From positions 1 through 36,590 of the forward strand of contig JAQVFF010000002.1 of the NCBI GenBank assembly GCA_028697345.1: 36,590 bases of DNA. The letters run 5' to 3'. The DNA comes from Candidatus Shapirobacteria bacterium. GTDB taxonomy: Bacteria; Patescibacteriota; Microgenomatia; 0-14-0-10-38-17. The position numbers were made by a program, and so were the translations under genes. The notes under the pieces were generated by a model. It did no database searches. It was not told the origin of the DNA and worked only from the letters and a program-made list of their open reading frames with translations. Positions 14,259-32,795 of the stretch are shown one piece after another (within the stretch, counting starts at the first letter, position 1; each line of letters opens with the position of its first letter).

Positions 14259-14813
14259 ATGAAAAAATCATTAATGTTTGTGGTGGCGGGATTATTAGTT
14301 GTTGTTGCGGTTTTGTTGGTTATCGTTAGTCAAAGATCAAAAATTGCCCCCTTAGTAACTAATAACCTTATTGATAGTGATAGGCAACAAGATTTGTTTA
14401 GCGGCACCCTTAAGGCGGCAATAGCCAAGGGTATTCCTATGAAGTGTTCTTACGAGATTAATGGGGTGGAATATGAGAGTTATGTTAAAGGAAAAAAATA
14501 TCGAGGTATAATTTCAAAAGACGGTCAGACTCAGGAAATTTTAATGGCTGACAATTATATGTATACCTGGCAGGAAGGCAAAACTCAAGGACTCAAAATG
14601 TTCTTTGATCTAGAATCCGACGAAGAAACGGACGAAACCCTTATTAATCCGGATATGGAATACAAGTGTTGGCCGGCGGTGATTTCTGACGACCAATTCT
14701 CTCTTCCAGATGATATCGACTTTGTGGACTTGGATCAAATTACAAGCGGAGAATTATCGGAAAGTCAGCTTCAACAACTGGAACAAATGTCTCAAACAGG
14801 CCAGGAAGAGTAA
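14259..14813 (+). CDS. N-terminally anchored acidic hypothetical protein
   Basis: There is a perfect SD (AAGGAGGTGA, 5 nt upstream), an N-terminal TM and an acidic C-terminus. Confidence 0.6.
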   Translation: MKKSLMFVVAGLLVVVAVLLVIVSQRSKIAPLVTNNLIDSDRQQDLFSGTLKAAIAKGIPMKCSYEINGVEYESYVKGKKYRGIISKDGQTQEILMADNYMYTWQEGKTQGLKMFFDLESDEETDETLINPDMEYKCWPAVISDDQFSLPDDIDFVDLDQITSGELSESQLQQLEQMSQTGQEE

Positions 14814-14840
14814 CGGGTATCGGGTAATTTATTTTGAGAC

Positions 14841-15809
14841 CTAACTTATTATTTTATGTGTCCAAAAGGCGAATCTTTTGTTTTCTGGGGCTGAGGATTG
14901 AGGATTTACTTTTGGATGGTCATCGTTAGGGGGATAACCATGAAAAAGAATATTGTAAGTTGCTTGTGTGATACCAAAACCAGGTTCCCCGGAACCATTT
15001 TCCCCCAAGCCAAAAACCACCAGAGAATGACCAGAATATCTTTCCCCTCTTTCAAGCGCCTTCTTAGTTTCTTCTTTAACAACGTTGTCTGGTGTTACTG
15101 CCAAGCCGATACTTCCCACTAGAGATTGTCTTAAGCTCTCCTGGGAAGTAACTTCCTGCCAGCCATAGTTTATGCCGTATGTTCTTAGCCAAAGGTCAAT
15201 GTCGTTGGAGCTTAAAAAACGATGAGAGCCGGTCTCTGGGTCACATTTTCCCCGCTCTTGCTCAAGTTGGTTTATGCCAATGGAATAGGGTTCTCCGGTT
15301 TTTTTGTCGTATAGCGAGCCAATCACATCGTTTCCTAAAATAAGGCGAAGAAAATCTAAGGCGTAAATGTTACAAGCATAATTGTCTTCTGGGTTTGGAT
15401 TCCATTCGCGATTATAACGAAGACTTTTTTCTACATCTAAAAAACCAATCGCGGCAGCGAACATATGGGGCAAAGAAAGGTTTCTGATTACTGCTACGGT
15501 GGCGTTCCCCCAGTAAGTAAGATCAATTCCTGGTCGAGTTTCGTCAAGCATCTGTGAATCTTCAGGCGTTTTCATATTTCTACCTTGCTCGATCCATTCT
15601 TCAACTGTTTTAACGATCTCAGGATCAAGTTTTTTGACTGTTTCTTGTCTTCTGGTCGTTTCTCCCTGATTTGGCGGGGCTTCCTGAGAGGGTGAGCAAC
15701 CGCTAGCGCTAAGAGCGGTGGCGGCGACAGTAGCCGTTATCCCGGTCAAAAATTTTCTTCTATTTAAAGTAGTTTTTGGACTAGTTCCTTTATTATCAAC
15801 TTCAACCAT
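14841..15809 (-). CDS. Tat-signal exported protein, possibly a papain-fold (Cys/His) hydrolase
   Basis: The twin-arginine motif NRRKFLTGITATVAATALSASGC also has a lipobox-like SGC. The candidate catalytic Cys is in NYACNIYALDF and the candidate His is in YSGHSLVVFG. The fold assignment is an inference only. Confidence 0.55.
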   Translation of the reverse strand: MVEVDNKGTSPKTTLNRRKFLTGITATVAATALSASGCSPSQEAPPNQGETTRRQETVKKLDPEIVKTVEEWIEQGRNMKTPEDSQMLDETRPGIDLTYWGNATVAVIRNLSLPHMFAAAIGFLDVEKSLRYNREWNPNPEDNYACNIYALDFLRLILGNDVIGSLYDKKTGEPYSIGINQLEQERGKCDPETGSHRFLSSNDIDLWLRTYGINYGWQEVTSQESLRQSLVGSIGLAVTPDNVVKEETKKALERGERYSGHSLVVFGLGENGSGEPGFGITQATYNILFHGYPPNDDHPKVNPQSSAPENKRFAFWTHKIIS

Positions 15810-15854
15810 AGAAATTGGATTGTTTTTTCATTTTTAATGTAACCTACCCAATAA

Positions 15855-15870
15855 ATGATAATTTTATCAT
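15855..15870. promoter_or_regulatory. Palindrome ATGATAA-tt-TTATCAT upstream of the Tat-signal gene (Fur-family-box-like)
   Basis: The arms are a 7-2-7 perfect inverted repeat, 46-61 nt upstream of the ATG at 15809. It resembles the TGATAAT/ATTATCA half-sites of Fur-type boxes, but the AT-rich background makes a chance match possible. Confidence 0.3.
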
Positions 15871-15916
15871 AAATAACAGTTTAATATTTAATGTTTTTTT
15901 AGGGAAGTTACAGAAT

Positions 15917-15947
15917 AAAAAAAATGCGGCTGGAAAAACCGCCGCAT
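15917..15947 (-). terminator. Rho-independent terminator (hairpin ATGCGGC/GCCGCAT followed by U8 on the minus strand)
   Basis: Stem 15924-15930 pairs with 15941-15947. The A8 run at 15917-15924 gives a U-tract on the minus-strand RNA. It lies 50 nt downstream of the Lys-rich micro-ORF. Confidence 0.75.
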
Positions 15948-15997
15948 TTTTATCAATCAACCACCACTAACGGACTTATTTTTTTCGGCCCTTTTTC

Positions 15998-16075
15998 TTA
16001 GTGGCCTTTTTTTTTAGTGGTTCTTTTAACCGCTTTCTTAACGGTTTTTTTAGCCTTTTTTTTCTTAACCGGCAT
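15998..16075 (-). CDS. Lys-rich micro-protein (25 aa: MPVKKKKAKKTVKKAVKRTTKKKGH)
   Basis: It is too short for the ORF track. The SD AAAGGTGGTGA lies 5 nt upstream of the ATG (16075-16073) and a strong terminator lies downstream. An A9 run sits near the 3' end. Confidence 0.45.
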   Translation of the reverse strand: MPVKKKKAKKTVKKAVKRTTKKKGH

Positions 16076-16422
16076 TATTTATCACCACCTTTAATTTAAA
16101 AAAGATCAAGAAGTTGATCAAAAGAATCTTTCAAAATAAACGAAGCGCTTGATGATAAATTACCCAGGGCAGTGAGCATATTTATTAAATAGTTTTTCTC
16201 ATAATTTACTTGTGGTGTCAATAGCATTTTATTGCCGATATCAAGGGAAAAAGTTTTCTTTTTAGTCTGATTATCTTTTGGTTTTTTTAAAATAGCTTTT
16301 TAATAAAAATTAAGACATGTGGCAAGAAAATGTTAAAAGGTCTTGCAATTTGGTAAAATTATTATTAATATTAAAAAGAAAAAGGTTTAAGGTTTTGAAG
16401 AATATAAAAAAGGAGGTGAAAA

Positions 16423-16935
16423 ATGAATAAAAATACCATTATTGCTATTGCCGCTTTAGTTTTATTGGTGGTAGCCGGCTTTTTGGTTTTTAATCAAAGT
16501 AGTGTTCAGGCGCCAGAAACGGTTGATATTGGAGAGGCGCAATTACCAGAAGATACTGTAACCCTGGAAGAAGCAGAGGTTCCCCAGACGGTGGTAGAAG
16601 AATTTTTAACCAACCTGGTTAAATCGGCGCCACCGGAATCTGATGAAATAGCTTACGAAACGGCTGTTTCTTTGCTTTCTCAAGATGCTAAAACATTGGC
16701 AACTGACGAGGAAGGCGATATTGTTCTGCCGTTACTGGTTGGTATTCAAGACCTTCCCGATATGGGTTATCAGGTAATCAGCGTCGAATATCAAGATGAT
16801 TTGGTTACCAATGAGGAAGACAGTTTGGCCTTGGTGACTGTGGAAATGAGATATTCCGGTGGAGATATCGAGCGGGTTTTTGCCCTTTCCTTAGCTGATG
16901 GTCAATGGCTGATAGATCGGGTAACTCAGGAATAA
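16423..16935 (+). CDS. N-terminally anchored acidic hypothetical protein
   Basis: There is a perfect SD (AAGGAGGTGA). A possible promoter is TTGCAA (16343-16348)-17-TAATAT (16366-16371). It has an N-terminal TM. No family recognised. Confidence 0.6.
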   Translation: MNKNTIIAIAALVLLVVAGFLVFNQSSVQAPETVDIGEAQLPEDTVTLEEAEVPQTVVEEFLTNLVKSAPPESDEIAYETAVSLLSQDAKTLATDEEGDIVLPLLVGIQDLPDMGYQVISVEYQDDLVTNEEDSLALVTVEMRYSGGDIERVFALSLADGQWLIDRVTQE

Positions 16936-17015
16936 ACAAAAAACTATTTCCTGAAGGATTTTAGGGTTTTTTTGTCGTTTTCTAGTTTGGTTTTTGATGG
17001 TTTTTAAAATTTGAA

Positions 17016-18065
17016 ATGAAGGAAAGGATTGCTCTTGTTTCAATATTGGTTAATTTAATTTTAGCTGGGGGAAAAGTAGCTGTTGGTGTTGCTTCTGGCT
17101 CAGCTTCAGTTTTGGCCGGGGGAATTGATTCCTCTGTTGATATTTTTTCTTCATTGGTTAGTTATTTGGGAATTAGAGTGTCGGCAAAACCGGCTGACGA
17201 GAGCCACCCCTATGGACACTATAAATTTGAAGCCTTATCGGCCACGATAATCACTTTAATCATTTTGGCTACTGGTGTTGGGGTAATTTATAGTGCTTAT
17301 CAAGGCTTTCTTAAACCAGAAAAGATCAATGTTAATTACTTAGTTTTTGGAGTGATGATATTTTCGGTAGTTATTAATGAAACAATGTCTAGAATAAAGA
17401 CTTTTTATGGAAAGAAGGAAGATTCGGTTAGTTTACTTTCAGACGGAGTTCATTCTCGAATTGACGTTTATACTTCTTTGGTAATTTTAATCGGATTGTT
17501 TTTTACTCGATATTGGCCTTGGGCTGATAGTATTTTGGCGGCCTTAATGGGGTGTTACATTATTAAAGAGTCTTTTAGGGTTGGCCGGGAGGCGATTGGC
17601 TCCTTGCTAGATGTTTCGGCCGGGGAAGAAACAGAAGCCAAAATAAAGGCGATTGCTAAAAAAAAGAAAGTGAAGGTCGCCTCTTTAAAAACACAAAAAA
17701 AGGGGTCAATTGTTACTGCTAACCTAGCAATAAGTTTATCAAGTATTCTGAGTGTTAAAGAGGCCACTGATATTTCAACCAGTTTTAGGAAAGAATTAAT
17801 GGGAAAGATTAAAAACCTTAGATTTGTAGCAATTGAGATTATCAGTCATGAAACAACTACTGGTTTTTATCGACCAGCATTGGGACGAGGCTTTGGTTGG
17901 CAAAAACGGGGTCGATTTAAAGAAAAAATCGAGGAAGCCAAAGGTCAAGGTCCTGGCGGTGGTTGTATTTGTCCTACTTGCAATTATCAGGTGTCTCATC
18001 AAAGAGGTATTCCCTGTTCATCTCTTCAATGTCCTAAGTGTAAGACCAACCTGGAGAGAAATTAA
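17016..18065 (+). CDS. Cation diffusion facilitator (CDF) transporter with a C-terminal Gly/Arg-rich linker and Cys-rich ribbon
   Basis: The six-TM CDF core includes SVDIFSS, HPYGHYKFE and HSRIDVYTS, and a cytoplasmic CTD follows. The extra tail (nt 17871-18062) is GRGFGW...GGGCICPTCNYQVSHQRGIPCSSLQCPKCK. Confidence 0.85.
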   Translation: MKERIALVSILVNLILAGGKVAVGVASGSASVLAGGIDSSVDIFSSLVSYLGIRVSAKPADESHPYGHYKFEALSATIITLIILATGVGVIYSAYQGFLKPEKINVNYLVFGVMIFSVVINETMSRIKTFYGKKEDSVSLLSDGVHSRIDVYTSLVILIGLFFTRYWPWADSILAALMGCYIIKESFRVGREAIGSLLDVSAGEETEAKIKAIAKKKKVKVASLKTQKKGSIVTANLAISLSSILSVKEATDISTSFRKELMGKIKNLRFVAIEIISHETTTGFYRPALGRGFGWQKRGRFKEKIEEAKGQGPGGGCICPTCNYQVSHQRGIPCSSLQCPKCKTNLERN

Positions 18066-18138
18066 ACACCTGGCAACTTCTGTCTTATTGAGAGTTTTTT
18101 GCTAAACTAAAAGTAATTTTTTAAAAAAAGGAGGCTTT

Positions 18139-20856
18139 TTGAAAAATTATTCTTATCACCATTTAAGTTTCCGTCAGACCATCAATAAGTTTAAAACAGA
18201 TTCTGATAAAGGGCTTTCTGAAAGAGAAGCTCAAAAAAGGCTGGCTCGTTATGGCTTAAACGAAATCCCCGAAAATAAACCACGGTTTCCGATTTTGACT
18301 TTCCTTTGGCATCAGATCAACAATGCCATGGTTTATATCTTGCTTTCGGCGGCAATAATTACTTTTTTTATTGATCATATTCTTGATACTTATATTATTC
18401 TGGCAGTAATATTAATCAACACCATTATTGGTTTTATTCAAGAATATCGGGCCAACAAGACCGTTGAGGCGCTCAAGGAAATGGTCGTTTCTTTGGCTAA
18501 TGTTTATCGTGACGGTCAGCTGATTGAGGTTTCGGCCAACCAATTAGTACCAGGAGATATTATTTTGCTAGAAGAGGGTGATCGAGTACCAGCTGATGGC
18601 CGTTTGATTGAAGCAAAATCTTTACAAACGGTTGAATCGTCCTTGACCGGAGAAGCATTTTCAGTTAATAAGAATCTTAGAGTTTTACCGGTAAAAACTC
18701 CTTTGGCAGATCGTAAAAATACCGTTTGGATGGGGACTTTTGTTGTTGGCGGTTGGGCCAAGGCGATAGTAACAGCCACTGGGGCTCAAACAGCGATAGG
18801 AAAAATTTCCCAATCTTTAGGAGAGATTGACTCTGGGAAAAGCCACTTTGAAGAAAAAACCAATCATTTAGTTAAACAGATGGCGGTAGTGGCGATTTTG
18901 GGTGCTGTAATTACTTTCTTAGTTGGTTTTTGGGTTCGTCAGTTTGATTTCGGCGAAATTTTAATTTTTTCAGTAGCTTCTTTGGTTTCTGGTATTCCCG
19001 AAGGCCTCCCGGCGGTGTTAATTATTATTTTAGCTGTTGGTGCTAGTAGAATGGCTAAAAAAAATGTTATCGTCCGCTCTTTGCCGGTAACAGAAACCTT
19101 AAGTGTTACCGATGTTATTGCTGTTGATAAAACTGGTACTTTAACCCAAAACAACATGACGGTGGAAAGGGTGGTTGCCGGAGGGGGCGTTTTTAAAGTT
19201 TTAAATGGTTGGCAACAGAAGGGTTCTTTTTTGAAAGGGGAACAAAAAATCGATCCTCAAAATAGCCCAGTTTTAAAAAAGCTGATTATTACTGCCGGTC
19301 TTTGCAGTCGGGCAAAACTGACTATCAAGGAAAATGACCAGGGAAATCTTGATTATCGGGTTAACGGTGATCCTACCGAAGCCGCTTTAACTGTTTTGGC
19401 CCATAAAGCCGATCTAAAAAATGTTTTAGCGAAATTTAATTTAGTTGATGAACTACCCTTTAACCAGAAAACAAGATATAAGGCAGTATTGGTCGAACAA
19501 GATGACAGGAAAGAAATTGTTGTCTCTGGAGCACCGGAAGCGGTAATCGGTTTTTGTTCAAAAAAACTTGTTAATCAAAAAGAGATGGAATTATCCGAAG
19601 ATGATAAGAGACAAATTTTATCCCAGGTGCAGAAAACTTCTCGTCAAGCAATGAGGGTAATTGGTCTGGCTTATAAAAAAACTTCTCCAGAATTGAAAAA
19701 TTTATCTTACTCTTCAGTTGAAGATTTAATTTTCATCGGTTTTGTTGGTATGGTTGATCCACCTCGTCCCGGGGTTAGGGAAGCTATTATTAAAGCCCAA
19801 GAAGCGGGTATTAGAATTATTATAAAGACAGGTGACCATAAGGAAACGGCTTTGGCTATTGCTCGTCAGGTTGGTATTGCAGATGCTAGTTTAGCCAACA
19901 GTAATTTTCCTTCAGTTTTGACCGGGGAAGAACTTTTTTCTTTGCCTGAAAATAAGTTTAAACAGGCGATTGAAACAGTGTCTATTTTTGCTCGATTGAC
20001 TCCCGATATGAAACTGAAGATTCTAGAGGCTTTACAAGAAACTGGTCACTGTGTTGGCATGAGCGGTGATGGTGTTAATGACGCCTTGGCTCTTAAGAAA
20101 GCCGATGTTGGTATTGCTATGGGTAACATGGGCAGTGATGTTGCCCGAGAAGCCAGTGATATTGTCTTGGCCGATGATAATTTTGCCTCGATAGTTGATG
20201 CCATTGAGGAAGGACGAATTGTTTTTAATAACACCCGTCAGGCTAGTGCTTTTTTGGTAACAACTAATTTGGCCGAAGATTTAATTGTTGTTATTTCAAT
20301 TATTATGGGTTTTCCTCTGCCTTTATTGGCAGCTCAAATTCTTTGGCTTAATTTGGTTACTGATGGTGTAACTGATTTAGCCCTAGCGGCTGAGCCTGGC
20401 CATGGTGATGTTTTACTTAGTTTACCTCGAACGAAAGGGGAAAATGTTTTGTCGGCTGGAATGGTTGGTTTTCTGGCGCCGATCGTTTTAGTAATGGTTT
20501 TGGCCACTCTTGGCGTGTTTTTAGTCTTGTTGCCGCAAGGAATTGCCAAAGCCAGGACTGGAGCTTTTGCCGTAATGGCCTTTACCCAACTATTTAATAT
20601 TTTTAACATGCGTTCTTTGGAAAAGTCGCTTTTCAAGATTGGTCTCTTGAGTAATAAATATGTTCTTGGGGCGGTTGGTTTCTCGCTATGTTTGCAATAT
20701 TTGGCTTTAAACAAGTCGTTTTTCAGGGACTTGTTTAATTTTGAGACACTGGCTTTAGCAGAATTGGTAAAAATAATTTTCTTATCTTCAGCAGTTTTTT
20801 GGTGTGGAGAAGCTTATAAACTAATCAGGAATTTCTTGCAGAAAGCAAAGTCTTAA
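18139..20856 (+). CDS. P-type ATPase, type II (Ca2+/Mg2+-transporting, SERCA/PMCA-like)
   Basis: Motifs present are DKTGTLT, TGD, GDGVNDALALKKADVGIAMG, PEGLPAV in TM4 and the N-terminal GLS..EA..RL..YGLNE. The TTG start lies 4 nt after GGAGG. Confidence 0.9.
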   Translation: MKNYSYHHLSFRQTINKFKTDSDKGLSEREAQKRLARYGLNEIPENKPRFPILTFLWHQINNAMVYILLSAAIITFFIDHILDTYIILAVILINTIIGFIQEYRANKTVEALKEMVVSLANVYRDGQLIEVSANQLVPGDIILLEEGDRVPADGRLIEAKSLQTVESSLTGEAFSVNKNLRVLPVKTPLADRKNTVWMGTFVVGGWAKAIVTATGAQTAIGKISQSLGEIDSGKSHFEEKTNHLVKQMAVVAILGAVITFLVGFWVRQFDFGEILIFSVASLVSGIPEGLPAVLIIILAVGASRMAKKNVIVRSLPVTETLSVTDVIAVDKTGTLTQNNMTVERVVAGGGVFKVLNGWQQKGSFLKGEQKIDPQNSPVLKKLIITAGLCSRAKLTIKENDQGNLDYRVNGDPTEAALTVLAHKADLKNVLAKFNLVDELPFNQKTRYKAVLVEQDDRKEIVVSGAPEAVIGFCSKKLVNQKEMELSEDDKRQILSQVQKTSRQAMRVIGLAYKKTSPELKNLSYSSVEDLIFIGFVGMVDPPRPGVREAIIKAQEAGIRIIIKTGDHKETALAIARQVGIADASLANSNFPSVLTGEELFSLPENKFKQAIETVSIFARLTPDMKLKILEALQETGHCVGMSGDGVNDALALKKADVGIAMGNMGSDVAREASDIVLADDNFASIVDAIEEGRIVFNNTRQASAFLVTTNLAEDLIVVISIIMGFPLPLLAAQILWLNLVTDGVTDLALAAEPGHGDVLLSLPRTKGENVLSAGMVGFLAPIVLVMVLATLGVFLVLLPQGIAKARTGAFAVMAFTQLFNIFNMRSLEKSLFKIGLLSNKYVLGAVGFSLCLQYLALNKSFFRDLFNFETLALAELVKIIFLSSAVFWCGEAYKLIRNFLQKAKS

Positions 20857-22790
20857 ATGACAACTTGAGCCAGAAGCTCGTCCATTTGGGCGGTGGCCAT
20901 ACCAATAACTTTATCGCCGCCACCATAGTAAACAAACAAAGTATTCTTGACCAGGATGGCACCACAGGGAAAAACCACATTAGGAACATCGCCCTCTTTT
21001 TCATATTTTTCAGTTGGTTTAATAATAGGATATTGGCTGCGATATAGAACCTTACCAGGATTATAGTGGTCAAGGATCATCATGCCGACACGGTATTGAT
21101 GATCAATGTCAGAAACACCATGGTATAAAAGCAGCCAGCCAGAATCGATTTTGATTGGCGGGCCGGCAATACCAATTTTTTCTCCGTCCCAGCCGTTTGG
21201 TCTGGGGAAAATTGCCTGTTCTTTTTTAAGCCAACTTTTTTCTTCTTTTAAATCTTCTAGATTGTTAACGTAATCAACGGCAATATCCTCTCCGCCGGTT
21301 CGATGCAAAATTACATATTGGTTATTTATTTTTTCCGGTAAAAGACAACTATTCTTATTGTGAATACCAAATTTTGAAATAGCAATTGGCTCGGACCAAG
21401 AAAAACGATGGTTAATAAAATCCTTAACGGCAATGGAGGATATAGCCACTCGGGGATGATCGATGCCGTTGTAGGCAGTATAGAACATATAGAAATAATC
21501 TCCCATTTTGGTAATTCGAGGATCCTCGCAACCCGACAACCGGCCCGGTTCTTTTTTTTGTTCAAAATCACCTCTTGGAGTATAGATCGGCTCGTCAAAG
21601 CGTTTAAAGTGAAAACCGTCATCGCTTTCAGCCAATCCCAAAGTAGAGGTGTGATCAGGAGATTGGGCCCGATAAACTAAATAGAATTTATCTTTTTGAT
21701 AAATAGCGGCTGGATTAAAAACGGAATTGGCTTCCCAGAAATTTTCTTCTCGAGGAGCAAGAATCGGGTTGTGGTGGTATTTAGTCATTAAAAATGTTTC
21801 TTTGACAGGATTATCAGACATATTTTTGAATAAATATTTAATGTTGATTTCAGCCAAGGCGCAATGATTATCGGCGGCGCCATAATAAATACGAAGAGTG
21901 TTCTTTTCTATTAAGGCACCGGAAGGAAAAATAACATTGGTTACTGCTCCTTTTTTTTCGTATTTGGTTTTAGGGGTCAAGATTGGTGAATTAGTTCGAG
22001 CGATAATTTTTTTTGGGTCGTTTTTGTCTAACAGGGCCGCCTCAATGCCGAAGATTCTTTTTTCTGGAGTATAGTAATTTTGAATATAAGCATAGATCAA
22101 CAGCCAGCCATGTTTGGTTTTAATCGGGACCGCACCAACCTCGATTTGATCAGAATTAACCCGACGTAGGTTGATCGAATAGCGATAATGGTCTAGGCAC
22201 TTATACCATTTATTCCAAAAACCGGGTGACCAAATATCAGCCAGTTGATTAAAGTAAGCCAGACCGATTCTGGCTGGCGGCTGGTCAGTGTCGGCAGTTA
22301 AGACAGCGGCGTATTGGCCATTGATTTTTTCCGGGAAAAGAGCCATGGCCTTGGCGTTAAAATGAGTCACCAGATGCTTAGCATCAATGTTTTTTAGGTC
22401 TTTGGTGATAGCCAGGCCGACCCTGATGCCATTGGCGGTGGGCGGGTATTGGCTTAAGGCAGTATAGAAGATGAAATAACGGTCGTCTATTTTGGTGATT
22501 CTGGGGTCTTCACAGCCATATTTTTCCCATTCCTTTTCCGGTTTAATTAGTTGGCCAATTTTGTTGAAGGAAACTCCGTTTCGGCTGACGGCGTGGCCAA
22601 TAGTGGAAACATTCATTTCTTGACCATAGTGATCTTTTTTTGCTGAAACGGCTCGATATAACAGATGATATTTGCCATCTTTGATAACACTGGGATTAAA
22701 GGCCGCCTCTTGCTCCCAATCATTTTTAGGATCAGGAGAAAGAATCGGATTTTTAGGGTGTCGGCTAACCTTAAGATTATTGATTATCAT
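20853..22790 (-). CDS. Tandem double GH130 (DUF377, PH1107-related) glycoside phosphorylase/hydrolase
   Basis: There are two full repeats of the GH130 pattern (NPIL.P...WE...FNP...YRA...G.A.S.DG..F...GCEDPRITK...YTA ... GWLL.YH ... YYGG.D). Confidence 0.85.
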   Translation of the reverse strand: MIINNLKVSRHPKNPILSPDPKNDWEQEAAFNPSVIKDGKYHLLYRAVSAKKDHYGQEMNVSTIGHAVSRNGVSFNKIGQLIKPEKEWEKYGCEDPRITKIDDRYFIFYTALSQYPPTANGIRVGLAITKDLKNIDAKHLVTHFNAKAMALFPEKINGQYAAVLTADTDQPPARIGLAYFNQLADIWSPGFWNKWYKCLDHYRYSINLRRVNSDQIEVGAVPIKTKHGWLLIYAYIQNYYTPEKRIFGIEAALLDKNDPKKIIARTNSPILTPKTKYEKKGAVTNVIFPSGALIEKNTLRIYYGAADNHCALAEINIKYLFKNMSDNPVKETFLMTKYHHNPILAPREENFWEANSVFNPAAIYQKDKFYLVYRAQSPDHTSTLGLAESDDGFHFKRFDEPIYTPRGDFEQKKEPGRLSGCEDPRITKMGDYFYMFYTAYNGIDHPRVAISSIAVKDFINHRFSWSEPIAISKFGIHNKNSCLLPEKINNQYVILHRTGGEDIAVDYVNNLEDLKEEKSWLKKEQAIFPRPNGWDGEKIGIAGPPIKIDSGWLLLYHGVSDIDHQYRVGMMILDHYNPGKVLYRSQYPIIKPTEKYEKEGDVPNVVFPCGAILVKNTLFVYYGGGDKVIGMATAQMDELLAQVVI

Positions 22791-24387
22791 TTGTCATCTG
22801 ATTGATAGTGGTGCTTTCTAGTTTAGCATTTCCAGTAGTTTTTAGCTGGCTTAGAAATTGTTCCAGATTAGCAGTGGCGACACAAACATAGGAATCGGCT
22901 CCGCCGTAATAGACAAAAAGAGTGTCGCTGATAATTACTGCTCCGCAAGGATAAACTACTCCGGCCTTAAAGCCGTCATTGTCATACCATTGGTCCGGTT
23001 CGATAATTGGCTTTCTTGAACGGTAAAGTACTTTGGTAGGATTATCCAGGTCCAAAAGCATCGCGCCAACTTTATAGCGATAACCTTCCTTGTCGTCCAC
23101 AGCCTGATAAATCAATAACCAGCCTTCTCGGGTTTTTAAGGGTGGGGCGCCAGCACCAATTTTTCGACTATCCCACCACATCGGGGAGCGAGGCTTAATT
23201 CGATATTGGCCCTTAAGGTATTGGCCGTTAGAAAAATCTAAGGAATTAACAAAATCGATTAAAATGTCAGGAAAAATTCGATGGAAAACAACATATTGGC
23301 CATTGATTTTCTCCGGCAGAATACAAGCGCTTTTATCGACCACCCCCGGCGGTGAGATTAAAATTGGTTTTTTCCAAAGCCAATTACGATTTAGAAAATC
23401 TTTAACGGCAATTGAGGTTAAGGCAATTCGAGGCTCGGTTACGCCATCAAAAGCAACATAAGTCATATAAATTCTGTCTTCGACTCGGGTTAATCGGGGA
23501 TCTTCGCAGCCGCCACAACCGCCGGAAGTATAGGCAGTGCTTAGTTGGCCAGGTTTTTTAGTACTCTCAAATGGTTGGGTGGGAACAAAGACCGGTTGAT
23601 TAAGCCGTTCCTCAATATTGAGACCATCCTTACTGGTGGCATAACCAATGGAGGAAACATAATCAAAACCCTGAGCCCGGTAAAAAATATGGACTTTTCC
23701 AGATTCGTAAATAGCGGCCGGGTTGAAAGTATTGAAAGCTTCCCAGTCATTATCGGCTTGGGGTTTAATTAAAGGGTTTTCTTTTGGTTTTTGTAATTGA
23801 TAACATTTTCTAATTTTAATTTGTTGACTAATTCGATATTCAGGGTAATTAACAACCCAAATTTCATCATCAATTAGCCAATAAGCCAAATAGCGATCTT
23901 TATTTTTCAATAAATCAATAAAAACCACTTTCCGTTTTGGGGGAAAAGGTCCCATTAGGAAAACTGGCTCATTATGACGCCAGAGAAGTTGGGGATTATT
24001 TCCCTTGGTAAAAGCAACGACACCAATTTCAATCTGATTATTTTTTTGGTAGTGAAAAAAAACCAACAAACCTTCATCAGTAGAGAAAGCATTTTCTATT
24101 TTTAGGTTGTGGGAATCAAGATATTCACTGCCAGGAACTAAGAGGTTAAGATAACGCTCGTTTAAAAAATTTTCCTTTTGAGCCTTAATTTTTGGATAAA
24201 TTTTAACCGCCAGGTTATTAAGACGGCTGGTCTGGAAATTAAAACCATCTCGGCTTTCGAAAGTTTTGGTAATTCGACCGGTTATTTTATCGGTGATTAA
24301 CAAGTAGCTGATTTTTTGGTGACGGCAAAAAAAGAAGGTTTTATTTTTCAAGGACCTTTTCTTAGTAAAATTAAGAATTCTGATCAT
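22777..24387 (-). CDS. GH130 (DUF377) glycoside phosphorylase/hydrolase with a ~200-aa degenerate N-terminal module
   Basis: The C-terminal 330 aa carries GCEDPRLTRV, SIAVKDF, GWLLIYQAV and VYYGGADS. It overlaps the downstream GH130 gene by 14 nt. Confidence 0.85.
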   Translation of the reverse strand: MIRILNFTKKRSLKNKTFFFCRHQKISYLLITDKITGRITKTFESRDGFNFQTSRLNNLAVKIYPKIKAQKENFLNERYLNLLVPGSEYLDSHNLKIENAFSTDEGLLVFFHYQKNNQIEIGVVAFTKGNNPQLLWRHNEPVFLMGPFPPKRKVVFIDLLKNKDRYLAYWLIDDEIWVVNYPEYRISQQIKIRKCYQLQKPKENPLIKPQADNDWEAFNTFNPAAIYESGKVHIFYRAQGFDYVSSIGYATSKDGLNIEERLNQPVFVPTQPFESTKKPGQLSTAYTSGGCGGCEDPRLTRVEDRIYMTYVAFDGVTEPRIALTSIAVKDFLNRNWLWKKPILISPPGVVDKSACILPEKINGQYVVFHRIFPDILIDFVNSLDFSNGQYLKGQYRIKPRSPMWWDSRKIGAGAPPLKTREGWLLIYQAVDDKEGYRYKVGAMLLDLDNPTKVLYRSRKPIIEPDQWYDNDGFKAGVVYPCGAVIISDTLFVYYGGADSYVCVATANLEQFLSQLKTTGNAKLESTTINQMTNDNQ

Positions 24388-25066: not shown

Positions 25067-25348
25067 TTAGTTTTTAGTGGTTATTTTTATTGCCTGTCCG
25101 TTAATTAAAGCACTAGCGATTTTTTTTCGAGCATTGGATAGGATTCGGGCAAAAGTTGGTTGAGAAACTTTCATTTTCTTGCCTGCTTCGGTTTGGTTAA
25201 GGTTAGCGACATCATAGAGCCTTAAAGCCTCCAACTCCTCGGGTAATAAAACTGTTTCTTTGAGTTGGTATAAAGGCACCCCCCGAGGTTTAAAATAGAC
25301 TACTCCGGGGGTGAAATTAATTCGCCGAGGGTTTTTTTGTCTGGTCAT
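25067..25348 (-). CDS. DUF134 (UPF0251) family putative DNA-binding protein
   Basis: The sequence F.P.GVP.....V.L..EELEALRL.D...L.Q.EAG.KM.VSQPTF.R.L..ARKKIA.AL..G.AI is the characteristic DUF134 signature. Confidence 0.75.
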   Translation of the reverse strand: MTRQKNPRRINFTPGVVYFKPRGVPLYQLKETVLLPEELEALRLYDVANLNQTEAGKKMKVSQPTFARILSNARKKIASALINGQAIKITTKN

Positions 25349-25561
25349 ACCTTATAAAATTTATTGTCGGATTGCTGTGTTACCAAATTAGTTTTAGGTA
25401 TAAAAAACAGAGCCAAAGACAATGTGATAAGATAGCCATTGAATAATTTCTACCTTTTTCAGTTGTTAATTACTTGTTATCAATTACTAAACACTGGCAA
25501 CACCTACGCCAGATTATATCAGGTGCTTCTTTTCAAATTAAAAGAGGTGTTCTTTTATACC

Positions 25562-25807
25562 TTATTTTTCTAATTCTTTTTCCTCTTTTTCGACGTCTTG
25601 AAGCTCTTCTTCTAAAGCTTTTTTATATTCGATCAGAGCCTTTTTTTGGTCAGCCTGATTTTGGGGCCAAGCCCAATTAAAATAACGACCCAATCCTCGA
25701 CCTGCTCCAAATCTTCTTCGCCAACCTAAGCCCAATCCTCATGGGCCAACGCCTCGGCCTGTTCTTGGTCCTAAGCCGCTTGGTCCGGTTTTATCAAATC
25801 CTGGCAT
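25562..25807 (-). CDS. DUF5320-family Gly/Arg-rich small protein interrupted by one in-frame TGA (codon 23; Sec candidate or nonsense mutation)
   Basis: It is not in the ORF track because it is split. The SD GAGGAGGTGA lies 6 nt upstream of the ATG at 25807. Translation gives MPGFDKTGPSGLGPRTGRGVGP-TGA-GLGLGWRRRFGAGRGLGRYFNWAWPQNQADQKKALIEYKKALEEELQDVEKEEKELEK-TAA. The TGA is at 25739-25741. Confidence 0.6.
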
Positions 25808-26001
25808 TTTTCTTCACCTCCTCAATTCTGTATTTTGAATACATATTCATTATATTTGATTGATTAAAAATTGTCAAGATATAATTTAAGTTGTTTTTGA
25901 GTCTTAAAAAAACAACAAAATCAACCTGGCACAAACTATTAATTTGTGGTATTCTTTTGTTAGATTAAATAAAGAGGAGGTGAAAAAGCGACAAAATAAA
26001 A

Positions 26002-26334: not shown

Positions 26335-28491
26335 TTAATTTTTTATTCTTAAAGAATTAAGAATGACCGATAAGGAACTGAAGGTCATAGCACCAGTAGC
26401 AATAATTGGACCGATAGGTGTTGCCAGTAGTCCAAAGGCTGCTACTGGTATCGCTAAGATATTATAAAAAAAGGCCCAGAAAAGGTTTTGTCGGATAACT
26501 TTAAAGGTTTTTTGGCTAAGCTTGATTGCTATAGGAAGAGTTTTGGGGTCTGCTGTTAGTAGAATAATGTCGCCGGTCTCGGCGGTAATGTCGGCCCCGG
26601 TTCCCATAGCAATACCAACATCGGCCTGAGCGAGTGCCGGAGCATCATTGAGGCCATCGCCAACCATAATTACCCCTTTCCCTTCTTTTTGAAGTTTTTT
26701 AATAACCTCAACTTTTTCTTTCGGTAAAACTTGAGCGATGACATTTTTTATCTTTACTTGATCGGCAATTACTCGAGCGGCACTGCTGTTGTCGCCGGTT
26801 AGCATAATTACTTCAAAACCCATTTTTTCTAAGGTTCCAATGGCCCTGGAAGCTGTTTTTTTGGGAGTATCTGCCAAAGCAATTAGGCCGAGCAAATTAT
26901 TTCCTAAAGCGGTAAAATTAACGGTTTTTCCTTCTTTTTCTAGTTTAGTAACAGTATTTTCTATCTTAATAAAACCGTTGATGCCGTTTTCTTTTAAAAA
27001 AGCTTTGGTGCCAATCAGGGCCTTTTCTTTATTAATTGTTCCTTTGATTCCCTTACCAGGAATTGCCTGAAAATCAGTTACCCTAAGTAGTTTTATTTTT
27101 TCCTTTTTAGCTTCCTGAACAATTGTTTTGGCAATCAGATGTTCAGAATTATTTTCTAAACTGGCGGCAATTGTTAAAAATCTTTTCCTGTTTATCTTAA
27201 GGGGTTGAATATCGGTAATAGTCAGTTTGCCCTGAGTAATAGTTCCGGTTTTATCTAAGATAATTGTGGTGGTTTTATTTAATTTTTCAATTGCTTCACC
27301 TCGGCGAAACAAAATTCCTTTTCGAGTGCCTTCCCCAATACCAACCGTTAGGGCGGTTGGGGTGGCCAGGCCCAGGGCGCAGGGGCAGGCGATAATTAAG
27401 ACAGTGATAGCAGAAACAATTCCCTTAAACCATTGCCCCCCCCAAAACCAGACCACTAAAGTAATTAAGGCAATTATTAGTACAATCGGGACAAAATAGG
27501 CTGTTACTTGGTTGGCCAGTTTTTGAATTGGCACTCTGGTTCCCTGAGCCTCTTCAACCAATTTGATTATTTGTGATAAAAAGGTTTTTTGGCCGATTTT
27601 ATCAACTTTTATTTTTAACCGACCACCTTGATTAATGGTTGACTGAAACACTTGACTGCCGGCAATTTTTGTTATTGGTAGTGATTCGCCAGTAGCGATT
27701 GATTCGTTGATTGTTGATTGTCCTTCAAGAACTTTGCCATCAGCAGGAATCATCTCTCCTGGTTTAACTAAAACAATATCGCCGATGGTTAAATTGGCCA
27801 GAGGGATTATTTTTTCCTGGTTATTTTTTAAAATTCGAGCGGTTTTTGGTTTTAAAGCAATTAACTCCTTTACTGCTTTGGAAGCTCTGCCTTTAGCTTG
27901 AGCTTCAAGATATCTACCCGCTAATTGAAAGGAAATAATAAAGGCGGCTATTTCGAAGAAAACCGGGATTTCAATAAAAAAAGCTGCCACTCCAAATAGA
28001 AAAGCCACTGACGATCCCAAAGAAATTAAGACATCCATATTGGCATAAAATTTTCTGATTGCTTTCAGAGCCGATTGATGGATTGGCCAGCCCAACCAAT
28101 AGACGACGATGGAAGTTAACAAAGCTTCAATGGCCAACTGAAGAGGGTGAGGTTTAATAAGGGATTGGCCGAAAAAATGTTTTCCAACCATAATAGCCAT
28201 TAAGGGAAAGCTGAATAGCAGTGCCGCGATTGCCCGATTTTTGTTTTTTCGAATTATTTTTTCAGGTTGATTTAGGGTTGATTTTTTTTCTTCAACTTCG
28301 TAGCCAAGATTTTGAATAATTGCAACTAAGTCGTTTTTAGCAACAGGCTCTTTGGTTTGGGCCAAGAGCTTACCGGTGGTAAAGTTAATTTTTACATCAA
28401 AAATGCCGGGGTGTTTTTTAAGCCGGGATTCGATTTTTTGGGCACAGGAAACACAGCTCATTCCCAATATTGATAAAACGATTTTTTTCAT
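26335..28491 (-). CDS. copA: Copper-translocating P1B-type ATPase
   Basis: It has an N-terminal HMA domain with GMSCVSCAQKIE, CPC in TM6 (ACPCALGLATP), DKTGTIT, and GDGLNDAPALAQADVGIAMG. Confidence 0.95.
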   Translation of the reverse strand: MKKIVLSILGMSCVSCAQKIESRLKKHPGIFDVKINFTTGKLLAQTKEPVAKNDLVAIIQNLGYEVEEKKSTLNQPEKIIRKNKNRAIAALLFSFPLMAIMVGKHFFGQSLIKPHPLQLAIEALLTSIVVYWLGWPIHQSALKAIRKFYANMDVLISLGSSVAFLFGVAAFFIEIPVFFEIAAFIISFQLAGRYLEAQAKGRASKAVKELIALKPKTARILKNNQEKIIPLANLTIGDIVLVKPGEMIPADGKVLEGQSTINESIATGESLPITKIAGSQVFQSTINQGGRLKIKVDKIGQKTFLSQIIKLVEEAQGTRVPIQKLANQVTAYFVPIVLIIALITLVVWFWGGQWFKGIVSAITVLIIACPCALGLATPTALTVGIGEGTRKGILFRRGEAIEKLNKTTTIILDKTGTITQGKLTITDIQPLKINRKRFLTIAASLENNSEHLIAKTIVQEAKKEKIKLLRVTDFQAIPGKGIKGTINKEKALIGTKAFLKENGINGFIKIENTVTKLEKEGKTVNFTALGNNLLGLIALADTPKKTASRAIGTLEKMGFEVIMLTGDNSSAARVIADQVKIKNVIAQVLPKEKVEVIKKLQKEGKGVIMVGDGLNDAPALAQADVGIAMGTGADITAETGDIILLTADPKTLPIAIKLSQKTFKVIRQNLFWAFFYNILAIPVAAFGLLATPIGPIIATGAMTFSSLSVILNSLRIKN

Positions 28492-29084
28492 TGTAATTTA
28501 GCCGGGAAGTTAGTAAAGATGGGTAAATTTAAAATTTCTTCCCAAGAGGTCTCTTGGGGAGAAAAATGTATCCTGAATAAATTAGGAAAATCGAAAACAA
28601 CATTTTTAACGCCTTCGTTTTTTTTAAGTTCGTCAATAATTAATGGAGCATGGCCAGAACAGGGAATTTGAACCGCAACTGTAATGGAGACTAAATTGTT
28701 GGCTTCTCCTAAGGTTTGTGTTCGAGGGTTAAGATTTAGATTGGCGACTTTAGGGAAAATAACCAAGAAAAACAATAAATTGGTAATAATGGTGGTAGTG
28801 TAAAGAATTAAAAGATAACGCCATTTTTTCTGAACACCTTGCCAGGAAAGAAAACGGCTTCTTTTAAGATAAATTATCGCCGAGACAGTGGCAAAAGCGA
28901 ACGAAAAAGCAATTAGTAAATAAAAAAGATAACGGGACAACAGTAGCGGTTTTATAAAGGCGGTAGCGGCAGTGGCTCCCAGGGCGGTAACAATAATAAA
29001 AGCCAAACAAAAAGTATGAGGAAGCAATCCAGACAAGATTGCCGAGACGAAGCTTGATTTATGTTTTTGAATTTTATTGATCAC
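28488..29084 (-). CDS. 3-TM membrane protein with a C-terminal HMA-like domain carrying C-S-G-H instead of CxxC
   Basis: Its TGA overlaps the copA ATG (ATGA). TM1 contains LLPHTFC. The C-terminus ITVAVQIPCSGHAPLIIDELKKNEGVKNVVF aligns to the HMA beta-alpha-beta pattern. I chose the GTG start at 29084; the track ORF extends to 29171 and would overlap csoR by 98 nt. Confidence 0.6.
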   Translation of the reverse strand: MINKIQKHKSSFVSAILSGLLPHTFCLAFIIVTALGATAATAFIKPLLLSRYLFYLLIAFSFAFATVSAIIYLKRSRFLSWQGVQKKWRYLLILYTTTIITNLLFFLVIFPKVANLNLNPRTQTLGEANNLVSITVAVQIPCSGHAPLIIDELKKNEGVKNVVFDFPNLFRIHFSPQETSWEEILNLPIFTNFPAKLQ

Positions 29085-29352
29085 TTTCCGAGTCTTCAAA
29101 TAATAGCAAGATTTCTTCAATTTTTTTCCGTGCCTCAAGTTTATTTTTACTTTTGATTGCTTGAATAACACAGGTGTTTAAATGGTTTTCTAAGATAATT
29201 TTATTAACCTTTTTCAGGGCGGCAATTACTGCCCGGTTTTGTTGAATAATATCAATACAGTATTTATCGGCAATGAGCATTTTTTTAATTCCCTGAATAT
29301 GGCCTAAAATATAATTCATTCGCTTAAGAAGATTTTTTTTAGAGTTGTTCAT
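29074..29352 (-). CDS. csoR: CsoR/RcnR-family metal-sensing transcriptional repressor
   Basis: The DUF156 signature is LLKRMNYILGHIQGIKKM......YCIDIIQQ..AV..AL.KV...ILENHL..CV. I chose the ATG at 29352 because the track's 5' extension runs through the promoter and operator. Confidence 0.85.
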   Translation of the reverse strand: MNNSKKNLLKRMNYILGHIQGIKKMLIADKYCIDIIQQNRAVIAALKKVNKIILENHLNTCVIQAIKSKNKLEARKKIEEILLLFEDSESDQ

Positions 29353-29373
29353 ATTGATAGTTATTAATTTCTT

Positions 29374-29392
29374 ATACCCCCTAGGGGGGGGT
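29374..29392. promoter_or_regulatory. CsoR-type operator: GC-rich palindrome TACCCCCTAGGGGG(GGG)T
   Basis: The perfect core CCCCC-TA-GGGGG is at 29377-29388, flanked by TA and T. It lies between the -10 and the csoR ATG and matches the known CsoR box style (ATACCCC-N-GGGGTAT). Confidence 0.7.
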
Positions 29393-29401
29393 TTAAGAAG
29401 G

Positions 29402-29430
29402 ATAATACTCTTTTTTAAATTATTTGTCAA
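29402..29430 (-). promoter_or_regulatory. Sigma70-type promoter TTGACA-17-TATTAT of the csoR / membrane protein / copA operon
   Basis: On the minus strand, TTGACA is at 29430-29425, followed by a 17-nt spacer and TATTAT at 29407-29402. Confidence 0.7.
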
Positions 29431-29510: not shown

Positions 29511-31457
29511 TTATCCCGCGCCGCCACCGCCGCCACCGCCACCACCGCCGCCGCCACCGGAAAATCCACCCGATGAGCCGGTGCCGGAAGCGCCATAGCC
29601 AGAAGAAACACTGGAGCCGAAATTGCCAAGGGCCAAGCCTAAAGAAGCAATGTTTCGGCTGAAATCATTTAGGCCAGTGGCAGTTATTGTTCCCCAGTAG
29701 GCGTTGGCCAAATCCCGGTCTTTCTGAGGGAAGCTTATCGATAATTGAGTTAATGTTTTGGCTGATATTCCCAAAACAGTTCCGTAAATTAAATATTTTT
29801 CCCAGACTACTAAAGAATCAATTGGGTCGTGCTTGGTTTTATTATAATCTTTGAGATGTTTTTTGAAAGCCAGCCACCCGGCAGCTTCCTGTCGACCCAG
29901 AACAGTTAGTTTTTCTCCTCGTTCCGTTGTTATTGCTGTAGCGGCAACGGATCCAAATAAGATTATAAACCCCAGAAGGTTGCCAATAATTAATGCTTGA
30001 GATTGTCCGGAAGGCCAGATAAGAGCAAAAAGAAGTATTCCATGAAAAATTGTCAACAAAACTAACAGAATAAAAGAATGATCTTTTTGATTAATTTGAT
30101 GGGCCTGGTGGTCGAATAATCCGCCCTTTAAGTTTTCTTTAAAGGTAATATCTTTTAGTTCTTCAAAAAATCGGAGGCTGTTTGCTTGATTTTTTTTAGG
30201 CCAAGAAGTAATTTTTTCTAAACTTAGAGCATTATTGATTGTTTGACTATTATCTTTAATTGTTTCAAAACCAATTTTATTTAAAAAATCAAATACTTGT
30301 TGTTGGATTGGATTGTTTGGTTGTCTTTTTTGATTAATTTTAATCAAGAAATAACGATAGTTTTTTTTTAAAAATCCCTGTTTCTGGCTGGTTCTTTTCA
30401 GCTTTAGAAAACGATCTTGTATTAAGGAAAGAATGGTAGCAGTGAATGATTTAGAGGTTAAAAACTTTTTTTTAACCAATAAAGACTCGATTTGGGCCGG
30501 TTGAATATTGCTGGGCGCCTCCCAAAGCCGGTTAGCCAAATTTACTTTAGGCAAGGGTTGATCTTTTTGATATTTAAAGAAAATAATAATTCGTTTAATG
30601 ACAAAGTAAACTCCAGTCAGGGGCAGTAATAAACTAATTAGAGCCAGAGAATAATTACCCGTTTTGGTTAATTGTTGTTTTCTAATTGTTTCTTGGATAA
30701 ATTTTTCTTCTTCGAGAATAATTTGCTCCTTAGTTTCGCTACCCGCAACCCCTTGATTAAAAATTGCTTTTGGGACCAGAATTCGGGCCTCGATGAAGGT
30801 GCCGGGATTAAGTTGCCTGACCTGGTAAGCGACTAGGTTATTTTTGGGAATTGACACTACTCCATCAAGAGGACCATGGCCCCAGGCTTTTAAATCTTGA
30901 TTGTCCAAACTTTGGGGGAAAATAATTTCAACGCTAATGTTTTTTTGGTTAATTTCCCAATTATCACCGATCAATTGCCAGTAAAGTTCGGCGGTATCTT
31001 GATGAAGAGTGATGGCGTTGTCAACTCGATAAGAAAGCAGAAATTCTTTTTGATTATTAGTGGCCTGATAAAACCATTTGATAAAATAATGGCTGTCTTT
31101 TTCTTCAGAATAAAAGGTTCCTGGTGGTCGAGATTTTTCAGCTTCGTTTTTTTCCTCTGCTTTTAGCTGCCGATAGCAGTCAATTTGATCACAGATTTGG
31201 AAATCGGTTAGCAAATAAGGTTCCTGTCTTGCTGAGCCGATTTTATTGATTTCTTGAAAAGCAAAGGTAAAGTCGCCCGAGAAAGAAAACAATCGCTTTT
31301 CTTCAACGGTCATAGAGCCATCTTGATTGACAGTAGCTTGAATGTTAACCCGATCGATAGAGTAAGATTTAGCTTTTAACTCGGGAGGAAAAATAAAAAC
31401 AGCAGTGGCCAAAAAACAGATGATGATTTTTTTCATGATCTTAACAATCGTTTTCAT
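29511..31457 (-). CDS. DUF2207-domain membrane protein with a poly-Gly C-terminus
   Basis: It has a signal/TM segment, an N-terminal YSIDRVNIQATVNQDGSMTVEE domain, several TM helices and a tail SGGFSGGGGGGGGGGGGGAG, as is typical for DUF2207. Confidence 0.8.
   Translation of the reverse strand: MKTIVKIMKKIIICFLATAVFIFPPELKAKSYSIDRVNIQATVNQDGSMTVEEKRLFSFSGDFTFAFQEINKIGSARQEPYLLTDFQICDQIDCYRQLKAEEKNEAEKSRPPGTFYSEEKDSHYFIKWFYQATNNQKEFLLSYRVDNAITLHQDTAELYWQLIGDNWEINQKNISVEIIFPQSLDNQDLKAWGHGPLDGVVSIPKNNLVAYQVRQLNPGTFIEARILVPKAIFNQGVAGSETKEQIILEEEKFIQETIRKQQLTKTGNYSLALISLLLPLTGVYFVIKRIIIFFKYQKDQPLPKVNLANRLWEAPSNIQPAQIESLLVKKKFLTSKSFTATILSLIQDRFLKLKRTSQKQGFLKKNYRYFLIKINQKRQPNNPIQQQVFDFLNKIGFETIKDNSQTINNALSLEKITSWPKKNQANSLRFFEELKDITFKENLKGGLFDHQAHQINQKDHSFILLVLLTIFHGILLFALIWPSGQSQALIIGNLLGFIILFGSVAATAITTERGEKLTVLGRQEAAGWLAFKKHLKDYNKTKHDPIDSLVVWEKYLIYGTVLGISAKTLTQLSISFPQKDRDLANAYWGTITATGLNDFSRNIASLGLALGNFGSSVSSGYGASGTGSSGGFSGGGGGGGGGGGGGAG
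29517..29559. repeat. GCC/ACC triplet tract encoding the poly-Gly tail
   Basis: The tract gcgccgccaccgccgccaccgccaccaccgccgccgccacc lies inside the 3' end of the DUF2207 gene. Confidence 0.8.
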
Positions 31458-31963: not shown

Positions 31964-31995
31964 AGCGCTCAAAGTTTTTTTGGGCGCTTTTTGGT
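31964..31995 (+). terminator. Rho-independent terminator after the RRM gene
   Basis: The stem is AGCGCTCAAA/TTTGGGCGCT (31964-31988) followed by TTTTTGGTTTTTT. An AT-only 11-bp hairpin precedes it at 31936-31958. Confidence 0.75.
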
Positions 31996-32081
31996 TTTTT
32001 AGAAGTTTATTAATTTATCTTAAGAAGATTGGGGTTGCCGGTCTTGCTCAAGAGAGTATATTTAAAATCAAGAAAGATTTT

Positions 32082-32795
32082 ATGTTGGTCAATATTATTT
32101 TAGCCTCCATTTTAGTAAGCCTAATTGCTTTTATCGGTATTGTTTTTCTTCTTTTTCAAAAAGTTCTTTTAGACAAGATCTTATCTTTATTGGCGGCTTT
32201 GGCCGCCGGTGTTTTAATGGGTCAGGTTTTTTATCATTTGCTTCCTGAGGCGGTGTCAGAATTTCCGGCTGACAAGGTTTTTTCTTTAACGGTTCTGTCT
32301 TTTGTAATATTTTTCTTTTTGGAGAAAGTTTTTTATTGGCGGCACTGTCATGATACTGGCTGTCTTGAACATCCTTTTGGCTATTTGAATTTAATTGGCG
32401 ACGGTTTTCATAATTTTTTGGACGGAATGATTATTGCCGCCGCCTTTTGGGAAAACGTTTCTTTGGGCTGGACGACAACCTTGGCAGTTATTCTTCATGA
32501 AATTCCTCAGGAAATCGGCGATTTTGGTGTTTTATTACTGGCAGGGTTTAGTCCTAGAAAAGCCTTGATAGCCAACTTCTTAACGGCAATTTTGGCTCTA
32601 CTTGGAGCAGTTACTGGCTATTTTTTAATTAATAAAATTACTGGCTTAGAGGGAATACTTTTACCTTTTGCCGCTGGCGGTTTTCTTTACATTGCGGCGG
32701 TTGATTTATTACCAGAAATTAGAACCAAAGCCCCTCATTCTTGGCAGATTTTGTTGACCTTTTTATTGGGTTTAATTGTTATGGCGGTAATTTGA
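32082..32795 (+). CDS. ZIP-family divalent metal (Zn/Fe) transporter
   Basis: The motifs HNFLDGMIIAAAF and HEIPQEIGDFGVLL are present. I chose the ATG at 32082 because the track's upstream extension covers the RRM terminator. Confidence 0.85.
   Translation: MLVNIILASILVSLIAFIGIVFLLFQKVLLDKILSLLAALAAGVLMGQVFYHLLPEAVSEFPADKVFSLTVLSFVIFFFLEKVFYWRHCHDTGCLEHPFGYLNLIGDGFHNFLDGMIIAAAFWENVSLGWTTTLAVILHEIPQEIGDFGVLLLAGFSPRKALIANFLTAILALLGAVTGYFLINKITGLEGILLPFAAGGFLYIAAVDLLPEIRTKAPHSWQILLTFLLGLIVMAVI

Follow-up and report, generated by a model that had tools for sequence, protein, structure and literature searches.

An in-frame TGA at the conserved cysteine codon of a Shapirobacteria DUF5320 gene is very probably a plain premature stop within a clustered three-base change

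The in-frame TGA at codon 23 of a DUF5320 gene in a contig of Candidatus Shapirobacteria (the window, i.e. the whole stretch of 36,590 nt that was analysed) is very probably a plain premature stop that stems from one clustered three-base event, and not a recoding site. An intact allele is present in a near-identical genome, the TGA allele is confined to a single assembly, and no compensating features accompany it. The ancestral gene, which is still present in the population, is an 81-aa Cys-containing DUF5320 gene with a consensus promoter, a strong Shine–Dalgarno sequence and a place in a two-gene unit with DUF134. A single clustered event in the deposited contig would then have introduced the changes TTT>GTT, TGT>TGA and GGC>GGA within 15 nt. 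If the mutation is real, translation should stop after 22 residues, leaving at most traces of the full-length protein through near-cognate read-through, or a 57-aa remnant through re-initiation at TTG 25735. There is no novel feature at the TGA site. The case calls for caution, since a selenoprotein call requires a UGA at a conserved Cys but needs far more than that; here, one comparison with an independent assembly sufficed to expose the codon as a private, clustered change.

A sequence-only reading of this DNA had described a minus-strand gene with a perfect Shine–Dalgarno sequence 6 nt before its ATG, a frame that stays open past the TGA up to a TAA, and a product of the DUF5320 type. All three elements were recovered. 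The open reading frame (25807..25562) comprises 22 codons (MPGFDKTGPSGLGPRTGRGVGP), the TGA, 58 further in-frame codons and a TAA at 25564..25562. Translated through the TGA, the product matches PF17253 (DUF5320) with 57.6 bits (E = 3e-15) across profile positions 1-98 of 99, i.e. above the gathering threshold of 27 bits and over the full profile. The TGA-bearing motif occurs once in the window against 0 occurrences expected from shuffles, and the codon is a genuine in-frame stop within a recognisable gene as opposed to a chance ORF. Taken together, the consensus promoter and the strong Shine–Dalgarno sequence (Table 1) would imply high expression of the small DUF5320 protein. The remnant that represents this gene in the public record is listed for one contig alone, the window's own 36,590-bp NCBI contig, and exact look-ups of the remnant, a DUF4870 protein and a cupin protein revealed no other contig that carries any of them. 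This 57-aa protein should not stand as the annotation of the DUF5320 gene; the locus is better recorded either as an intact 81-aa DUF5320 gene that contains a suspect base call or as a pseudogene specific to this strain.

Table 1 Positions of the features at and around the DUF5320 locus within the window
Feature	Position	Strand	Details
DUF134 (HTH) gene, intact	25067..25348	-	Pfam PF02001, E = 3.8e-21; downstream partner of DUF5320
Terminator-like hairpin	25494..25512	-	In the 213-nt spacer between DUF5320 and DUF134
DUF5320 gene, broken at codon 23	25562..25807	-	81 codons plus TAA stop; from translation and Pfam PF17253
TTG-initiated 57-aa remnant ORF	25562..25735	-	Sole product of the DUF5320 gene in the public record (P0122)
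Second GAGGATTGGG copy, codons R37-G40	25689..25698	-	Possible template or misalignment partner; weak statistics
GAGGATTGGG 10-mer	25731..25740	-	Created by the derived bases 25739 and 25736; identical to the copy 42 nt downstream
Codon 24, third base	25736	-	GGC in L001, GGA in the window; synonymous (Gly)
Codon 23, third base	25739	-	TGT (Cys) in L001, TGA in the window; C23stop
In-frame TGA, codon 23	25739..25741	-	TGT (Cys) in the L001 allele; the difference lies at 25739, T>A on the coding strand
Codon 20, first base	25750	-	TTT (Phe) in L001, GTT (Val) in the window; F20V
Shine–Dalgarno sequence GAGGAGGTGA	25814..25823	-	Read from the sequence; 6-nt spacer to ATG 25807
Sigma-70-type promoter, TTGACA-17 nt-TATAAT	25849..25877	-	Consensus match at 12/12 positions; directly upstream of DUF5320

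The position of the TGA was evaluated against the orthologous proteins. A protein search returned 298 matches, the best 120 of which are DUF5320 proteins of 77-89 aa; those among these 120 with a named source all belong to Patescibacteria (Shapirobacteria, Beckwithbacteria and Microgenomates), and the identity between the DUF5320 gene product and its orthologues of 80-89 aa from Patescibacteria amounts to 70-85%. The TGA had been placed exactly at a conserved Cys of DUF5320, and the alignment bears this out: residue 23 is Cys in 27 of the 27 closest aligned orthologues, inside an invariant G-x-G-P-C-G-x-G-L-G-W core. The Cys-containing protein MDD3531791.1 (P0001) from Candidatus Shapirobacteria has the same length as the window gene at about 85% identity. 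Proteins of this type from Patescibacteria and Microgenomates share with the window gene the N-terminal motif MPGFD.TGP.G.GP.TGRGFGPCGLGLGWR, the coiled-coil tail and the downstream DUF134 gene. Unlike these Cys-DUF5320 proteins, the window allele has Cys23 replaced by a stop and Phe20 by Val, so that the N-terminal motif of the subfamily (G19, F20, G21, P22, C23) is not intact; the intact form of this very gene, motif included, is encoded on the contig L001 described below.

A degenerate nucleotide pattern (G-R-G-(NTN)-G-P-TGA-G-L-G-L-G-W) was used to look for further TGA alleles, with the same pattern carrying TGY as control. The TGA pattern retrieved 0 loci from 185,579 species-representative genomes and 0 from 241 million metagenome records, whereas the TGY pattern retrieved 24 and 110 loci from the same two collections, respectively; a hit of the TGA pattern on the window itself serves as a sensitivity check. 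Across 135 orthologous loci, codon 23 reads TGC in 71, TGT in 64 and TGA in none, where 134 loci (L002-L135) stem from the TGY scans, in which TGY at this codon is fixed by the pattern, and the remaining one is L001. Codon 20 encodes Phe in 135 of 135 loci, although here the pattern (NTN) permitted Leu, Ile, Met and Val as well. As Phe20 and Cys23 are invariant in the 135 loci, both amino-acid-changing differences of the window allele strike invariant residues.

The protein encoded by the neighbouring DUF134 gene is found with identical sequence on one other public contig, L001 (Logan, SRR22315506, 1,356 bp). Of its 1356 bases, 1353 agree with the window (99.78%); it carries an intact 81-aa DUF5320 gene, and all three differences fall inside 15 nt around the stop (Table 1). 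Because the near-identical L001 carries TGT, the Cys allele exists, and the TGA allele is either extremely young or not real. Two readings had originally been offered for the TGA, namely selenocysteine and a recent nonsense mutation or sequencing error, with a genome devoid of Sec machinery, combined with TGC or TGT in close relatives, named as the outcome that would speak against the former. The latter reading is supported by the TGT of L001 and by the codons of the orthologous loci, which supply the second half of that outcome; the selenocysteine reading was not sustained (see below).

To describe the strain background, the window was compared with seven additional Logan contigs from this organism. 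L136, L137 and L139 are identical (100%) to it over 11.8 kb, and the contigs from SRR22315504 as a set show a 100% match over 11.8 kb save for two sites of disagreement within the final 100 nt of the deposited contig. Two contigs from SRR22315506, L138 and L140, likewise show 100% identity. A third from this run, L141, differs from the window (14633-18948) by 31 substitutions, 28 transitions and 3 transversions, which are confined to the patches 14640-14777 and 17719-18477 with identical sequence elsewhere. By their distribution the patches look like recombination tracts, and the 31 patchy substitutions indicate that SRR22315506 also contains a second strain with slight divergence. The three-base cluster in DUF5320 has a different spectrum, with 0 transitions and 3 transversions against 28 and 3 in the strain background (Fisher p = 0.0033). 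Ordinary strain divergence and an imported recombination patch were both considered as its source and are ruled out by this difference in spectrum, combined with the invariant residues that were struck. The two discrepancies noted above are seen in L142, which shows one single-base indel and one substitution relative to the last ~100 nt of the contig (36487, 36544), is identical elsewhere over the ~1 kb shared, and runs 2.9 kb past the contig end into genes of the S30AE family, Sua5/YciO/YrdC and MazG. These discrepancies suggest low-support sequence at the contig end.

For the origin of the cluster, two explanations were weighed. We consider the chances slightly better than even that the reads or the assembly consensus are in error here, at a G-rich spot with thin coverage that can form a hairpin. 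The three changes consist of transversions only, T>G and C>A among them. Illumina sequence-specific errors are triggered by GGC motifs and inverted repeats, with a miscalled base that repeats the one or two bases before it (Nakamura et al. 2011, PMC3141275), and the site is G-rich with both GGC motifs and an inverted repeat. The likeness to such errors in MAG consensus sequences thus extends to the clustering, the GGC-rich context, the inverted repeat, the exclusive transversions and the restriction to one assembly. It does not extend to the derived bases, which do not copy the one or two bases that precede them: no more than one of the three sites shows the signature, and this mechanism is not demonstrated. 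The Logan contigs of the organism are short, which presumably reflects low coverage, none of the recovered SRR22315504 contigs covers the locus, and the contig's own end disagrees with Logan as well. Against an error stand the otherwise error-free sequence of the contig over 11.8 kb and the fact that short-read assemblers working with good coverage do not usually produce a three-base consensus error. The rival origin, a multi-nucleotide mutation that is real and very recent and for which the GAGGATTGGG repeat 42 nt downstream possibly served as template, comes somewhat short of an even chance. Two of the three derived bases complete a 10-mer identical to the downstream copy, where the ancestral allele has no match of at least 6 nt spanning 25739 and 25736, and the third derived base, too, matches in the register 42 nt downstream. 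On the other hand, agreement with all three derived bases arises by chance at 41 direct offsets, and the mismatches in between were left unconverted. The 10-nt direct repeat is thus mildly suggestive, and fits a templated mutation or a misalignment artefact. As in recent nonsense pseudogenes formed by multi-nucleotide or templated mutation, a single event would account for three substitutions within 15 nt, an intact allele is found in a sister population, and two of the changes raise the identity to a repeat 42 nt away, albeit with weak templating statistics.

Whichever origin applies, the premature stop has to be weighed against readings in which the UGA is translated. Selenocysteine insertion, whereby SelB and tRNA-Sec would recode the UGA to yield an 81-aa selenoprotein with Sec in place of Cys23, is judged exceedingly unlikely. 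The gene does share the exact alignment of an in-frame UGA with an invariant Cys, the classic Cys/Sec signature, and the intact downstream frame with bacterial selenoprotein genes (Cys/Sec pairs dependent on SelB and SECIS, e.g. formate dehydrogenase alpha), and about 13% of the selenoprotein entries in BSepDB are without a canonical SECIS (PMC13326102). It differs from these genes in that no TGA orthologue was found in the two very large collections, against 134 TGY loci. A SECIS-like hairpin is lacking as well. The sequence-only reading had noted a hairpin with the UGA in its loop (GGCCCA-UGAGGAU-UGGGCU), which is indeed present in the predicted fold, and had seen no convincing bacterial SECIS downstream. 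Folding, hairpin enumeration and Rfam searches concur and gave no SECIS stem-loop directly after the UGA. Relative to dinucleotide shuffles, the RNA after the UGA yielded z = +0.57 (62 nt) and +0.20 (102 nt), and the 101-nt segment that holds the UGA-loop hairpin z = -0.38. The 60 nt after the UGA fold with -8.1 kcal/mol as compared to a mean of -13.1 for 132 Cys orthologues, 106 of which are more stable. A lenient enumeration of bSECIS-like hairpins returned one 6-bp mini-hairpin with G-U pairs, which is non-discriminating because 72 of the 132 Cys orthologues meet the same criteria. Rfam returned chance-level matches to unrelated families alone (25300-26000, E <= 10). Moreover, from +6 nt past the UGA onwards the window is identical to the TGT allele of the near-identical strain (L001), so that no SECIS or other insertion element can have co-evolved with the UGA. 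The TGA arrived together with a second damaging substitution, the loss of the invariant Phe20, for which a Cys-to-Sec switch would give no reason. Within the 36.6-kb window there are no SelA, SelB or SelD domains, no tRNA or tRNA-Sec, and no other interrupted gene. The literature searched held no paper linking DUF5320 to selenium, "DUF5320" being mentioned in an unrelated context alone, and none that settles the use of Sec in Patescibacteria, CPR, Microgenomates or Parcubacteria; nor did any paper mention the run accessions.

Reassignment of UGA to Gly (code 25) or Trp (code 4) is effectively refuted by the stop-codon usage of the window itself, and its probability is regarded as vanishingly small. 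The site lies within a Gly-rich stretch, and certain relatives among the Patescibacteria (Gracilibacteria and Absconditabacteria) read UGA as Gly. However, the position is that of an invariant Cys, which is neither Gly nor Trp, and the ~40 plausible genes of the contig (G+C = 38%) end in TAA (29), TAG (6) and TGA (5). Read-through of the five TGA-ended genes would add 1-12 codons, and two of these stops are part of ATGA overlaps with the next gene. No other long ORF in the window is interrupted by an in-frame TGA. With five genes ending in TGA and no other interrupted ORF, UGA is a normal terminator here, in line with the earlier view of TGA as a rare but genuine stop and of global reassignment as unlikely. 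A real allele kept functional by leaky termination, with near-cognate tRNA-Cys or tRNA-Trp, or by a 57-aa fragment from TTG 25735 that works with DUF134, is very unlikely. UGA is the leakiest stop codon, and with the strong promoter and Shine–Dalgarno sequence even 1% read-through could be appreciable; the 57-aa ORF is annotated in the public record, and the post-TGA fragment by itself still scores 28.8 bits on Pfam DUF5320. Yet the fragment is without the entire invariant N-terminal motif (M1...G21 P22 C23), its only Shine–Dalgarno-like sequence (GAGGA) ends 1 nt before the TTG, which is probably too close, and the arrangement was found in no other genome searched. It is similarly hard to credit that the TGA allele is real, dominant and translated without a canonical SECIS, be it via Sec or via efficient near-cognate Cys/Trp read-through. 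If this were true, a Cys-to-Sec or recoding transition would have been caught at its first mutational step.

Apart from the premature stop, the locus provides a side result that is perhaps more useful than the TGA itself. Most orthologous loci, 102 in number, have a co-oriented DUF134 gene directly downstream of DUF5320, in 97 cases within about 400 nt of the motif; 102 loci have room for such a gene. By this gene order, DUF5320 and DUF134 form a tightly conserved two-gene unit in Patescibacteria. The spacer of the window is at the long end of the range among the orthologous loci. Searches of PDB and NCBIfam gave no solved relative or curated function for DUF5320 or DUF134, and the pairing of DUF5320, in which a Cys and a Phe are invariant, with DUF134, an HTH protein, offers a lead that can be tested for both of these uncharacterised families.

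Metal-homeostasis genes are concentrated at 17016-20856, 26335-29430 and 31980-32795 of the window. These neighbours of the DUF5320-DUF134 pair comprise a CDF cation efflux protein, a P-type cation ATPase, an HMA-domain P1B ATPase, a CsoR/RcnR-type repressor, a ZIP transporter and a 227-aa membrane protein; as these are common to only 1-3 of 134 orthologous DUF5320 loci, the association is not conserved. Two adjacent genes of the GH130 (mannoside phosphorylase) family are found at 20853-24387 on the minus strand, the first encoding 645 aa with two GH130-like halves. At the start of the contig (3-1569, plus strand), an ORF contains a predicted pPIWI-associated nuclease domain (E = 8e-8) and is followed after 4 nt by a radical-SAM gene resembling spore-photoproduct lyase; the two may belong to a defence or repair module of which only a part is present. 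A DUF2207 membrane protein (29511-31457, minus strand) ends in a Gly/Ser-rich tail with an unbroken run of 13 glycines.
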